From the NCBI GenBank assembly GCA_945865565.1, contig CAMBEK010000002.1, positions 7,901-71,900 on the forward strand: a stretch of DNA of 64,000 bases. Direction: 5' to 3'. Under the pieces are notes generated by a model. That model saw only the letters and a list, made by a program, of their open reading frames with translations, searched no databases and had not been told where the DNA came from. The position numbers were made by a program, and so were the translations under genes. This document shows, piece after piece, positions 37,278-64,000 of the stretch; the first letter of the stretch is position 1; each line of letters starts with the position of its first letter. The stretch comes from Pseudobacteriovorax antillogorgiicola. GTDB lineage: Bacteria > Bdellovibrionota_B > Oligoflexia > Oligoflexales > RGVZ01.

Positions 37278-37344
37278 AAAGGATCCTTCGCTAACGCTCA
37301 GGATGACGGGGCTTCGCTCAGGATGACGAGGGCGAGGGATGACG
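37278..37344 (-). repeat. REP-like repeat cluster (one full and two partial units)
   Basis: Reverse complement reads CCCGTCATCCTGAGCGTTAGCGAAGGATCCTTT, plus CGTCATCCTGAGCGAAGC and CGTCATCCC. Confidence 0.75.
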
Positions 37345-37347
37345 AGG

Positions 37348-37387
37348 GAAAAAAGAATCCCCCGCTGCGCTAGCGCAGCGGGGGATT
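37348..37387 (-). terminator. Rho-independent terminator downstream of the deaD-like gene
   Basis: Perfect 32-bp palindrome AATCCCCCGCTGCGCTAGCGCAGCGGGGGATT (37356-37387) followed on the minus strand by a U-tract. Confidence 0.8.
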
Positions 37388-37397
37388 GGGGGTCTAA

Positions 37398-39218
37398 TCA
37401 GGCCCGGTTGTCTGGGCGCTTGGGTTTGAAGTCGCGCTGGGGACGGTCTGCATAACTGCGCGGGGCTTGTGGTCCGCTGCTGCGGGCGTCGTCGCGGTTG
37501 CCGCCGCGGTATCCGCCGCCGTTACTTCCGCCGCGGTATCCACCGCCACTGCTACTGCCGCCGTTGCTTCCGCCACGGTATCCGCCGCCGCTGCTGCCGC
37601 TGTTGCTTCCGCCACGGTATCCACCGCCGCTGCTGCCGCCGTTGCTTCCGCCGCGGTATCCGCCGCCGCTGCTGCCGCCGTTACTTCCACCGCGGTATCC
37701 ACCGCCGTCGCGGCTATCCCCGGGGCGCCGGCCTTGGCCGTAGCTTGGACGCTGGTTGCCAAAGGCTCCGCCATTTCGTTTGCGATCGATCAGACGCTTA
37801 AGGCGTTCATCGTCGAAGCCGATTCTTTGTGGTCCGCGTGCCTTGCGGCTGGCCTGCAGCAAACCAATCAAGCGGCATGCAATCTGTGACACATCCATCG
37901 TGGTTTCGAGTTGCGCCAGAAGTTCAAGGGCGTCGCTCGTGGATTCCTGGCTGTTGATGGATTCCATCAGCAGCTGGTCCAATTTCTTTTGGACGGCATG
38001 AACCCGCGGAACTTCGCGTGCCTGGAAGTTTGCTTTTACGGCGTCTTGAATCCGCTTCAGCTTGAAGTATTCGGAAGGGGTGACCAGGGTCATGGCCTTG
38101 CCCTTTTGTCCTGCCCGTCCTGTGCGGCCGATCCGGTGGATGTAGGCCTCGCGGTGAAACGGCATGTGGTAGTTGAAAACGTGAGTCACACCAACCACGC
38201 CAAGGCCGCGGGCAGCGACGTCGGTTGCAATCATGAAGCGCGTCTCGCCGGCACGAAAGCGGCGGATGATTTCCTGGCGCATGCTCTGGTCCATATCGCC
38301 ATGGAGTGCCTTGACGTTGTAGTTGCATGCCGCCAGGGCAGTCTGCAATTCGTCGACTTCAATTTTCGTGCGGCAGAAAACGATCGCGCGCTCTGGTTCT
38401 TCGGTATCAATCAACCGAATGAGGGCATCGCGACGCTCGGATTCTTCGACCACGTAAAACGACTGTTCGATGTCTTTGGGGATGCGTTCTTCTGTGGTGA
38501 TGTCGATGTATTCAGGATCCCGCAAAATATCATTGGCCAGCTTCCGGATAAGCGGCGGCATGGTGGCCGAGAACATCAAAGTCTGACGTTCTGCCGGCAT
38601 CATCGAGAATATTTTTTGGATGTCTTCAAGAAATCCCGTGTCGAGCATTTCGTCGGCTTCGTCGAGGACGACAATGCTGGGCTCAAACTTTTTCAAACGG
38701 CCAGATTCAAGAAGGTCGATCAGACGGCCTGGAGTTGCAACGACGATGGGGCATCCCTGGTTGATCAGCTCGACCTGACGCATGGATGACTGGCCACCGT
38801 AAACAGCAACGCTGCTCATACCAGCATTGCGACCTAATTTTGAAAGTTCGTCGCTGACCTGCAGGGCGAGTTCCCGGGTTGGTGCCATGACCAGGATTTT
38901 TACGCCGGATGATTTAGATGGCTTGAAACCACTGAGCAGCAAACGGCTCATGGCTGGCAATCCAAAGGCTGCGGTTTTGCCTGTTCCGGTCCGGGCCTGG
39001 GCGATAAGATCACGTCCCGCCATGGCGAGCGGAATTGCCAGACTCTGGATTGGACTGGGGGTCACAAAACCAGCGTCGCGGACGCCCCTTAGAATTTCCG
39101 GCGGAAGGCCGAATTGTTCAAATGTGTCGCTGCTGGTTTGATTGATTGGTTCACTGAGGGCCTCAGTGACCGTGTCATTAACCGTTTCGATGATGATGTC
39201 GTTGGTCTCGTTGCTCAT
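37398..39218 (-). CDS. DEAD-box RNA helicase, DeaD/CsdA-like, with Gly-rich RGG repeat tail
   Basis: [29 protein letters not shown]; tail with GGYRGGSNGGSSG repeats. Confidence 0.92.
   Translation of the reverse strand: MSNETNDIIIETVNDTVTEALSEPINQTSSDTFEQFGLPPEILRGVRDAGFVTPSPIQSLAIPLAMAGRDLIAQARTGTGKTAAFGLPAMSRLLLSGFKPSKSSGVKILVMAPTRELALQVSDELSKLGRNAGMSSVAVYGGQSSMRQVELINQGCPIVVATPGRLIDLLESGRLKKFEPSIVVLDEADEMLDTGFLEDIQKIFSMMPAERQTLMFSATMPPLIRKLANDILRDPEYIDITTEERIPKDIEQSFYVVEESERRDALIRLIDTEEPERAIVFCRTKIEVDELQTALAACNYNVKALHGDMDQSMRQEIIRRFRAGETRFMIATDVAARGLGVVGVTHVFNYHMPFHREAYIHRIGRTGRAGQKGKAMTLVTPSEYFKLKRIQDAVKANFQAREVPRVHAVQKKLDQLLMESINSQESTSDALELLAQLETTMDVSQIACRLIGLLQASRKARGPQRIGFDDERLKRLIDRKRNGGAFGNQRPSYGQGRRPGDSRDGGGYRGGSNGGSSGGGYRGGSNGGSSGGGYRGGSNSGSSGGGYRGGSNGGSSSGGGYRGGSNGGGYRGGNRDDARSSGPQAPRSYADRPQRDFKPKRPDNRA
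37498..37712 (-). repeat. Coding tandem repeat, about 39-nt unit (GGYRGGSN(G/S)GSSG)
   Basis: Six GGYRGG cores in the translated helicase tail. Confidence 0.9.
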
Positions 39219-62047: not shown

Positions 62048-62538
62048 GTTGATTGGCTCCTTTCCCAGTCAAAAACAATATTGGCGCGGTGCAGCTTTGC
62101 AACCGGGAAGGACCAGTGTCCTTCGTCGGTTTCAAGTGTCACCAGCTCGTCAGATGAAACATCCAGCAGCTTGCCTTTGGCTTGCCGCCGCTCACTTATT
62201 TTCTCGGTCAAGTTGACGTTGATCGTTGCCCCGATGAACTTACGGAAATGCTCTGTCCGTCGCAGTGGCCTTTCCAGACCTGGCGAACTGACTTCGAGGC
62301 TCCAGTCACCGGTAAACATTGCATCTAGTTGTTCACAGGTGTTCAAAGTGCGGCTCACAGCGGCACAGGTGTCCAGGTTGACCCCTTCCGGACCGTCGAC
62401 AAAAACGCGGAGCGTTTTCTCGTAGGCGAGCCATTCGGCTTCAATGCACTCCAGCCCCATTGAGGCCATTTCAGCGCTCTGGAGCTGGGTTTGAATCAAT
62501 TCGATGGCACGATTCAGTAGAATGCGGTTCATGATCAC
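62044..62538 (-). CDS. rimP: Ribosome maturation factor RimP
   Basis: LRVFVD...VNLDTCAAVSR...LEVSSPGLERPL. Confidence 0.95.
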   Translation of the reverse strand: MIMNRILLNRAIELIQTQLQSAEMASMGLECIEAEWLAYEKTLRVFVDGPEGVNLDTCAAVSRTLNTCEQLDAMFTGDWSLEVSSPGLERPLRRTEHFRKFIGATINVNLTEKISERRQAKGKLLDVSSDELVTLETDEGHWSFPVAKLHRANIVFDWERSQST

Positions 62539-62746
62539 CTTTTAAAGACAGCAACAGGCAGCAACACACAGCAAAACTTCCGTGTGCCGACAACCTAACT
62601 TCATGAAATTTCAGAATATTCTGTCATTTCAGGGCGGCTGCTGTGTGGCGAGCGACTTCTATCTAACCGCTTTCTATGAAAAAATCAATGAATCCATGAC
62701 TAAAATTGCACATCTGACCAGCATCCTTACTCAAATGGAGCTTCAA

Positions 62747-63547
62747 ATGAACAGCCCTGGCCACCCAAAAAGCGAGCGTCGTCGCCACGAACGCCATCCG
62801 TTAATTTCGCAGCTTGCGGCTGGTCCGTTGCTGAGCCTGAAGACCGAAGGTGGTGTTCTTTTGCCTGTTTTGAACTGGAGTTACGGTGGTTTGAAAATTG
62901 CGGTCACAGGAGTGGGTCAGTCGGCGCTAGGTCGTCTGGACGGGCCGGAGGCGATGCACGGCACATTAAAGATGGCTGTGGCTTCAGAGTTGTCGCAATC
63001 CGTTGAATTCAAAGTGATCTCGGTAACTGAAAATACAGTTTCCTGCGCCTTTGTTCACGATTCTCCCGATGCGTTGCTTTTCATGCGGCCTTGGATGGAA
63101 TGCCTTCGCAGGGGATCAGGCATGACGGAGCTGGCTTCCAATGCCATCAAGCCAGAGCTGGCTGCGGCCGGCTGGAAAATATGGCGCGGCGAAGGTCCTC
63201 TGACACTGTCTGCCCGTCATTCTGAGCCCCGTCATTCTGAGCGTAGCGAAGAATCCTCTCTTCAGCCCCGTCATTCTGAGCGCCGCGAAGAATCCTCTCT
63301 TCCCGACTGGCAACTGGTCTTCCCTCTCGGCGAAGGCTACGCCGAAGTTGGTTCCACCGACGGCAAGCTTTATTCCCGCAAATCTGTCGACAACGACGGG
63401 ATGGCCAGCACACGGATGCAGGCTCCCAACGCAAAAGATGTTGGATTACTGAACCTTGCCCTGATGTACTTGGCTGGATGTGCCGCAGGTGGTGTACCGG
63501 AAACCTTGTGCGCAAAGATCATTGATCAGTTGCGAAGGGATGCTTGA
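62747..63547 (+). CDS. PilZ-like domain protein carrying an in-frame REP insertion
   Basis: ERRRHER and NWSYGG resemble PilZ RxxxR and (D/N)xSxxG; GGAG 6 nt before ATG 62747. Confidence 0.7.
   Translation: MNSPGHPKSERRRHERHPLISQLAAGPLLSLKTEGGVLLPVLNWSYGGLKIAVTGVGQSALGRLDGPEAMHGTLKMAVASELSQSVEFKVISVTENTVSCAFVHDSPDALLFMRPWMECLRRGSGMTELASNAIKPELAAAGWKIWRGEGPLTLSARHSEPRHSERSEESSLQPRHSERREESSLPDWQLVFPLGEGYAEVGSTDGKLYSRKSVDNDGMASTRMQAPNAKDVGLLNLALMYLAGCAAGGVPETLCAKIIDQLRRDA
63213..63302 (+). repeat. REP-like units (one partial, two full) inside a CDS
   Basis: GTCATTCTGAG at 63216, 63231 and 63270; full unit CCCCGTCATTCTGAGCGYMGCGAAGAATCCTCTCTTC. Confidence 0.9.
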
Positions 63548-63570
63548 CGGCCCCCGCGGTGACACCTCAA

Positions 63571-64000
63571 TCATCGGCAAAGGATCGCAAAGCAGAGGTT
63601 CGCAATGCTTTCGCACGTCTGGTAGCGGCTATTGATGTTTGATTGGTTGAAGTTAAGGGTATCGGGTGAGGTGGGTCCCAGCCTTCTCAAATTAAACGCC
63701 CTTCCTGTACCAAGGGTGCTGCTGCATTCGCTGGTTTGCGTGAAGAGCCGCATCGTGCATCGCACATTGTCGGCGGTGTCGCGTTGGAATTGGATGGTGG
63801 ACAGAAGTTGCGACAGGGTCCCAGCTGTCAGGCTCGCGCCCCGATTCGGGAGAACGGTGTGGAAGTTTTGTGCTTGACCGAAAGCCCTGAAATCAGTGGT
63901 CAGCGCCATTGAACCAAGGTTGCTTTCAAAGGTTTTTACAACCGGTGGAGAGGCCCCCATCGTAAACGAGTATGAAACTGTGATTTTTGGGTTCAGGCGA
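63571..64000 (-). CDS. 3' part of a hypothetical protein (open to the right edge)
   Basis: The frame of the 63571..63960 ORF has no stop up to base 64000; Cys/Ser/Thr-rich. Confidence 0.55.
   Translation of the reverse strand, partial: RLNPKITVSYSFTMGASPPVVKTFESNLGSMALTTDFRAFGQAQNFHTVLPNRGASLTAGTLSQLLSTIQFQRDTADNVRCTMRLFTQTSECSSTLGTGRAFNLRRLGPTSPDTLNFNQSNINSRYQTCESIANLCFAILCR

Follow-up and report, generated by a model that had tools for sequence, protein, structure and literature searches.

The window analysed here, a stretch of 64,000 nt of Pseudobacteriovorax antillogorgiicola DNA, contains a gene for a PilZ-like protein with an array of short repeats inside its reading frame. The gene, the array and a second repeat cluster in the window are located as follows.

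62737-62740, + strand: Shine-Dalgarno sequence GGAG, 7 nt before the ATG at 62747 and kept in six of seven genus genomes in the intergenic alignment
62747-63547, + strand: PilZ-domain protein gene, 266 aa with the insert (orthologues without the insert, approximately 236-241 aa)
62777-63055, + strand: PilZ-fold beta-barrel domain, with RxxxR at 62780-62794 and NxSxxG at 62873-62890
63215-63229, + strand: partial repeat unit, head only, CGTCATTCTGAGCCC, encoding RHSEP
63230-63268, + strand: full 39 nt repeat unit 1, RHSERSEESSLQP, with a predicted hairpin at 63234-63254 around GCGTAGC
63269-63304, + strand: full repeat unit 2, RHSERREESSLP
63305-63544, + strand: 80 conserved codons after the insert, modelled as three strands and two helices of the C-terminal domain, with pLDDT mostly ~85-93
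37297-37345, - strand: second cluster of the head repeat, with two one-mismatch heads and decayed heads, between two convergent genes

Judging from the sequence, the ATG at 62747 is most likely the start of the PilZ-like gene. Starts at 62582, 62603 and 62696 were rejected, as the upstream frame holds stop codons in orthologues G002, G003, G005 and G006. The upstream extension of the ORF (gene-caller start MKFQNILSF...) corresponds to a non-coding block of ~150 nt between rimP and the PilZ-like gene (window 62545-62700), which varies less across the genus than the adjoining genes do. Within this block, CACACAGCA and TGCTGTGTG are complementary to each other; its folding equalled that of shuffled sequences on both strands, and an Rfam scan of 62400-64000 returned only a chance sR45 match (20.8 bits against a 40-bit threshold). 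The block may serve as a leader or as a shared promoter region; for annotation purposes, it appears to be a conserved leader miscalled as an N-terminal extension of the PilZ-like ORF.

The sequence-only reading of this DNA had called the host protein PilZ-like and a putative c-di-GMP effector. Pfam and NCBIfam searches gave no match for the protein (Pfam at E≤1), and its identity was therefore taken from motifs, fold and orthologues; a PDB profile search with the homologue alignment returned nothing useful. In an alignment of 15 sequences (14 homologues were found), the RRRHER and NWSYGG motifs are invariant and lie 27 residues apart, including R29, R33, N60, S62 and G65. Pfam PilZ (PF07238) matches three of the 15 orthologues, with a best E value of 3.2e-4, the window protein not being one of them. 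The AlphaFold2 model (pLDDT 74.5) retrieved c-di-GMP-bound PilZ domains as its top Foldseek matches (4xrn_B, E=1.7e-4, target TM 0.71), with further PilZ matches to MapZ, PA0012, BcsA and MrkH. Like the characterized PilZ c-di-GMP receptors (PA2989-type 4xrn, MapZ 5xly, MrkH 5kgo), the protein combines a beta-barrel with RxxxR and (D/N)xSxxG motifs 27 residues apart; unlike them, it is too divergent for the Pfam model and has an uncharacterized C-terminal strand-helix domain, inside which the insert lies. The assignment thus holds at the level of motifs and modelled fold, and the protein is a putative c-di-GMP receptor. A 56 aa fragment with 93 % identity to the PilZ-like C-terminus is encoded at G001:C40:17230-17397, and may be a duplicate or a strain variant.

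Three exact copies of the head sequence GTCATTCTGAG stand on the + strand, at 63216, 63231 and 63270, with spacings of 15 and 39 nt that are both multiples of three, as had been described for a 90 nt block. With up to one mismatch allowed, the window contains five matches against 1.19 expected, a number reached by 0/100 shuffles. The block had been placed at 63213-63302; the block itself stood, with a 2 nt offset to 63215-63304 in codon register, in which it forms 30 codons composed of a 15 nt head-only unit, a 39 nt full unit and a 36 nt full unit. The 39 nt units taken as 63225-63263 and 63264-63302 are 95 % identical. At 63284 in unit 2 the loop A has become C (GCGCCGC), breaking the GNA loop and replacing Ser with Arg, and RSEESS is still present at this point in P0002, a 99 %-identical protein. 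The + strand ORF reads ...LTLSA-RHSEPRHSERSEESSLQPRHSERREESSLP-DWQLVF... and remains open for 80 further codons to the TGA at 63545-63547, which bears out the proposed in-frame addition of residues; the predicted tryptic junction peptide across the insert is EESSLPDWQLVFPLGEGYAEVGSTDGK. A palindromic insertion is not supported as worded: each inserted unit is a single arm, all of them point the same way, and no complete palindrome is formed.

The second cluster, at 37297-37345, is in a typical extragenic REP position. A G+C-rich, terminator-like inverted repeat (cccccgctgcgctagcgcagcggggg) follows the extragenic head cluster (37297-37390), just downstream of a DEAD-box RNA helicase gene (37398-39218, - strand); the C-terminal tail of the helicase consists of approximately five GGGYRGGSNGGSS repeats and is an RGG-like low-complexity sequence.

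The repeat family within and outside genes

The block in the PilZ-like gene proved to consist of arrayed copies of a REP-type repeat found throughout the genome. Exact heads occur 206 times in the genome against ~2.4 expected, in 72 clusters of which 48 contain several heads, and are mostly extragenic. The host genome, a 2.5 Mb MAG of 44 contigs, contains 45 copies of the full unit GTCATYCTGAGCGNNGCGAAGRATC with up to two mismatches, and the reversed control gave 0. Intergenic elements are imperfect palindromes, with a left arm GTCATCCTGAGCGCAGCGAAGGATCCTCTCTT, a short loop and a right arm AAGAAAGGATTCTTCGGCCTACGGCCTCAGAATGAC; in these dimers the tags point outward, the tails face each other and head-only units lie on the outside. 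The arms are tandemly multiplied, with periods of ~18-23 nt for heads and 36-41 nt for full units.

All units read C-CGTC-AT..., and the pattern CCGTCATYCTGAG... is exact both in the window and genome-wide. The predicted hairpin of the 21-mer ATCCTGAGCGCAGCGAAGGAT pairs A4-T24, T5-A23, Y6-R22, C7-G21, T8-A20, G9.A19, A10.G18, G11-C17 and C12-G16 around the loop G13-N14-A15, giving nine stem positions with two G.A mismatches, a 3 nt GNA loop and a CCT tail. In 166 copies from other phyla, collected with a pattern in which Y6 and R22 were unconstrained, these two positions covary (CG 85, TA 78, CA 3, TG 0) and N14 is represented by all four bases; the in-gene copies all keep the T..A stem variant. 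In nearest-neighbour calculations, neither a single unit (z ~0) nor the whole array folded better than shuffles on either strand; the method was set aside as a test because its parameters take no account of GNA triloops or tandem G.A pairs. The GCGNAGC core is a published 'extraordinarily stable' DNA mini-hairpin (PMC13037366). The hairpin is predicted from the covariation and from the stability published for GCGNAGC and for tandem G.A pairs.

The repeat is widely and unevenly distributed. At least 118 stretches, drawn from over ten bacterial phyla, contain the exact 28-mer CCGTCATYCTGAGCGNAGCGAAGRATCC (loci L065-L182); among the matches listed are Acidobacteriota, Patescibacteria, Clostridia, Bacteroidota, Verrucomicrobiota and Campylobacterota, as well as Alpha- and Gammaproteobacteria, Chloroflexota, Gemmatimonadota, Planctomycetota and others. 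In the phylum sample, 27/131 genomes were positive, with 0-93 full copies each. By our own reading of the unit, four of its six frames are open, encoding RHPERSEGS, VILSEAKDP, KRGSFAALRMT and AQDD-type peptides, and these open frames explain many spurious hypothetical proteins in annotation.

In-frame repeat sequence also occurs in three further genes.

C14:33357-35228 (locus L057): MutL, with ~65 in-frame residues from the reverse-strand reading of the repeat, KRGFFAPLRMT three times plus (P)RMT-type heads
C1:375987-377261: CinA-like gene, with in-frame repeat-derived PRHSEQPRHPEQPRHSE
C15:2-2425: UvrD-like helicase gene, with in-frame repeat-derived LALRMTGKAKDD

In MutL the repeat stretch falls precisely in the linker that separates the DNA_mis_repair domain (231-347) from MutL_C (445-582). 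Clear units in this linker are common to G000 and G001, decayed units are present in G005 and G002 (RRFFAPI..., GRGFFATPRKTT...), and G004 has none; one MutL linker in the genus is largely built from the repeat found in the PilZ-like gene. Head spacings inside genes (15, 18, 18, 24, 39, 45 and 45 nt) are multiples of three in 7/7 cases, against 31/102 intergenic spacings (Fisher p=4e-4, indicative only, as the spacings are not fully independent). ORFs across the clusters at C9:41630, C1:323825, C1:99777, C26 and the 5′ end of C3:169141 were judged by their sequences to be non-coding or upstream of the true start, and were not counted.

The insertion site among relatives and the fate of the loop

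The gene rimP lies divergently upstream of the PilZ-like gene in 7/7 genus genomes and in more distant relatives, with the rimP-nusA pair kept alongside; this shared neighbour makes the PilZ-like genes positional orthologues. The insertion site can therefore be compared between them.

G002, G003, G004, G006 and P0010-P0015: empty site, LTLS(A/I), 5-7 residues, (P/I)(D/E)W; in G003 it reads LTLSA-RNMDSTD-PDW
G000: head and two units
G001: head, unit, head, unit
P0005: head and three units
P0006: two heads and one unit
P0007 and P0008: head and one unit
G005: one decayed unit CGTGATTCTGCGCGCAACGACGAATCCTCTC, with 27/31 nt equal to the consensus

Every site variant is in frame, and the arrays of G001 and P0005-P0008 are REP-like at the DNA level. 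The orthologue gap expected from the earlier reading lies exactly between TLSA and (P)DW, and the gene does not end before the insert in orthologues, which keep the 80-codon downstream part. The filled state is limited to one subclade, comprising G000, G001, G005 and metagenomic relatives, which argues for one insertion followed by change in copy number. Replacement of the ancestral linker has blurred the exact boundaries of the insertion, and with them any duplication of the target. One site seen empty, with one to three units, and decaying in relatives represents a natural experiment in the conversion of a selfish hairpin repeat into protein sequence.

The AlphaFold2 model places the insert beyond the PilZ domain, within the C-terminal one, and leaves the PilZ barrel undisturbed. 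In P0001 (numbered from 62696), residues 179-199 have a pLDDT below 50 and lie between strands 170-174 and 204-211. The insert is therefore probably a disordered, Arg/His/Ser/Glu/Pro-rich surface loop, 11-47 residues long among close relatives. Comparison of G000, G001 and G005 gave a dN/dS of 0.12-0.14 for the 80 post-insert codons and 0.21-0.26 for the pre-insert part. Purifying selection on the downstream codons indicates that translation runs through the insert, the point on which the earlier reading had staked its proposal, and we infer from these sequence comparisons that the gene is translated across the array.

Of the explanations that we weighed, it is very probable that a one-arm REP array occupies a loop-coding site and is translated through, the loop most likely being tolerated rather than useful. 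Were the gene instead dead or split by the repeat, with the downstream part no longer made, the absence of a Pfam match for the window protein would find an explanation; but the frame is open in every variant, the downstream dN/dS is low, and the C-terminal strands and helices are confidently modelled and packed as one domain with the pre-insert strands, making this a very improbable outcome. An assembly artefact, either a mis-join caused by the repeat or a collapsed array, deserves consideration in a 44-contig MAG, as repeats confuse assemblers. Both flanks, however, belong to one orthologous gene, and related arrays stand at the site in independent assemblies (G001, the ENA contigs of P0005 and P0008, and JGI and Logan members), so that an artefact is scarcely credible; the exact copy number in the window strain is the only part at real risk from assembly.

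The earlier reading had spoken of repeats domesticated in the gene. True domestication, in which the charged loop or a DNA or mRNA hairpin would be selected for a function such as the tuning of partner binding or a pause or processing site, could draw on three observations. The insert has been kept in frame across a dS of ~0.3-0.7; all in-gene copies have retained the T..A stem variant; and the insert DNA has diverged less than its flanks between G000 and G001, by ~5 % (hand count, four differences in ~84 aligned nt) against 9-22 % for flanking coding DNA. This low divergence could reflect constraint at the DNA level or homogenization against other copies, and hints at either rather than pure neutrality. 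Set against domestication, however, are a loop length that varies freely from 11 to 47 residues among close relatives, the low confidence with which the loop is modelled, the mutated loop A of unit 2, the same peptides in unrelated proteins, and decay of the sequence in G005, a genome that has almost lost the family (three copies). Di Nocera et al. argue likewise against domestication (PMC3733652). We consider domestication unlikely. Variable length, predicted disorder and decay with family loss fit neutral tolerance, and 'tolerated' is most likely a better word than 'domesticated'. What survives of the proposed new charged loop is its place between strands of a protein with PilZ motifs and fold, and not a gained function.

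A history consistent with a tolerated array would begin in the ancestor shared by G000, G001 and G005, with entry of the array into the loop-coding part of the PilZ gene and replacement of the 5-7-residue linker between two beta-strands. Slippage, or unequal recombination among its 15, 18 and 39 nt units, would then have lengthened and shortened the array. Since the downstream 80 codons are needed, only stop-free variants with a length that is a multiple of three would have survived, leaving the PilZ domain intact and the loop presumably neutral.

Relation to published repeat families

Rickettsia palindromic elements (RPEs) had been named as an analogous case. RPEs are selfish palindromic repeats that have entered numerous unrelated genes in frame, where they contribute surface loops while function is kept; RPE-1 is a full palindrome of ~100-150 bp in an obligate intracellular alphaproteobacterium. 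The work on these elements is reportedly that of Ogata et al. 2000 and Claverie and Ogata 2003, as cited in PMC3733652 and PMC1779305. The present repeat is likewise a selfish repeat found in frame in unrelated genes and adding a surface loop, but only single 39 nt arms and 15-18 nt heads occur in genes, the hosts are free-living Oligoflexales, and copy number varies in near relatives.

The comparison was apt, and closer than an analogy, since RPE-4 and RPE-6 of Rickettsia conorii have been equated with families of the CGTC-tagged REP superfamily (PMC3733652), which the present repeat fits. As described by Di Nocera, De Gregorio and Rocco (2013, BMC Genomics 14:522), CGTC-tagged REPs include RPE-4, RPE-6 and the Neisseria dRS3 element (PMC3733652). 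One end of the hairpin bears an unpaired tag, CGTC or else TGTC or CCTC; the stem is 8-9 bp long and opens with A-T and T-A, the loop is 4-5 nt and the 3 nt tail is CCA; intragenic copies usually contribute 20-30 and sometimes 43-82 residues, many lie in replication and repair genes, and a Sulfurovum CGTC-2 unit reads RHSELVSGS (PMC3733652). Shared with these elements are the unpaired 5′ CGTC tag, the A-T/T-A stem opening, approximately nine stem positions and a short CC-type tail, together with tens of dispersed, mainly extragenic copies, a patchy distribution among species, the lack of a tyrosine transposase and in-frame intragenic units. The repeat described here differs in the tandem G.A mismatch of its stem, its 3 nt GNA loop (published loops being 4-5 nt) and its CCT tail. 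It also differs in its frequent same-strand tandem arrays with head-only partials, published clusters being rare, and in its tail-to-tail dimers with outward tags, where the head-to-head arrangement predominates in published families. The RHPE and LRMT peptides, the exact family and the phylum are absent from the lists of Di Nocera et al., including the supplementary ones (PMC3733652), and a search of papers for the literal repeat sequence gave chance primer matches only. The repeat family is thus a new example of a known behaviour, in-frame REPs having already been published.

The short hairpins, inverted doublets and an enclosed enzyme gene in a REPtron layout recall the REP/REPIN-RAYT systems (Nunvar 2010, PMC2817692; Bertels and Rainey 2011, PMC3116915). 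Here, in contrast, there is no RAYT and no GTAG tag, and the enclosed gene encodes a ~97 aa GIY-YIG nuclease. The Y1 (RAYT) transposase domain PF01797 is absent from 7/7 genus genomes and from G060, which has 76 copies of the repeat, and its presence in other genomes does not track the repeat; a RAYT was consequently rejected as the mover. With MAG completeness of 77-100 %, assembly gaps are unlikely to account for its absence from all seven.

A GIY-YIG gene enclosed by the repeat

One gene does follow the repeat between genomes, and in G000 it lies within a cassette bounded by repeat heads.

C1:18849-19145 of G000, - strand: ORF of ~97 aa with a GIY-YIG domain (Pfam E=1.2e-14)
C1:18617-19371 of G000 (locus L197/L193): GIY-YIG cassette with inward-facing head arrays

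Head clusters flank the G000 ORF at 65-232 nt on the left and 98-216 nt on the right. An orthologue with the same flanks is present in exactly the four repeat-rich genomes of the genus (G000, G001, G003 and G006, with 38-63 copies) and absent from G002 and G005, with three copies each, and G004, with none. Across 131 genomes, a GIY-YIG homologue (E≤1e-8) was found in 12/14 repeat-rich genomes (at least ten copies) against 14/117 others (Fisher p=2e-8), and several of the 14 homologues in repeat-poor genomes have internal stop codons. G035 and G048 are repeat-rich with no homologue detected. Head arrays lie on both sides of the gene in ten repeat-rich genomes from six families, mostly with + heads on the left and - heads on the right regardless of gene direction. 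In at least three of the at least 118 cross-phylum stretches, a GIY-YIG homologue (41-48 % identity) is hemmed in by heads; among the matches listed, these hosts are Cyclobacteriaceae, Oleiharenicola and Gracilibacteria genomes, which adds three other phyla to the range of the cassette. The genes beside the cassette are common to G000 and G001 and differ in G003 and G006. By sequence, the GIY-YIG protein has no relative in the PDB. No paper joining 'GIY-YIG' and 'repetitive extragenic palindromic' was found in the literature searched, which does not prove the link unpublished.

The association between the GIY-YIG gene and the repeat is solid. Whether the repeat family, including the copies in the PilZ-like, MutL, CinA-like and UvrD-like genes, is the non-autonomous partner of the ~97 aa GIY-YIG nuclease is a tentative proposal, to which we would give a real though not quite an even chance. 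Under such a partnership, the nuclease would cut extruded hairpins, and repair would then copy, multiply and homogenize the units, the cassette being REPtron-like with the GIY-YIG enzyme in the place of RAYT. Loss of the GIY-YIG gene in G002 and G005 would explain both the shrinkage to three copies and the decay of the in-gene units there. The relationship may also run in reverse, the GIY-YIG gene being a homing element that lands in REP clusters.

With the array in the PilZ-like gene, the range of in-frame CGTC REPs now takes in a free-living Oligoflexales lineage and a protein resembling a c-di-GMP receptor. The GIY-YIG gene represents a more novel lead than the PilZ insert itself, as a concrete candidate for the enzyme behind CGTC REPs. 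If the proposed partnership is true, it would answer what moves the CGTC REPs, the superfamily of RPE-4, RPE-6 and dRS3.
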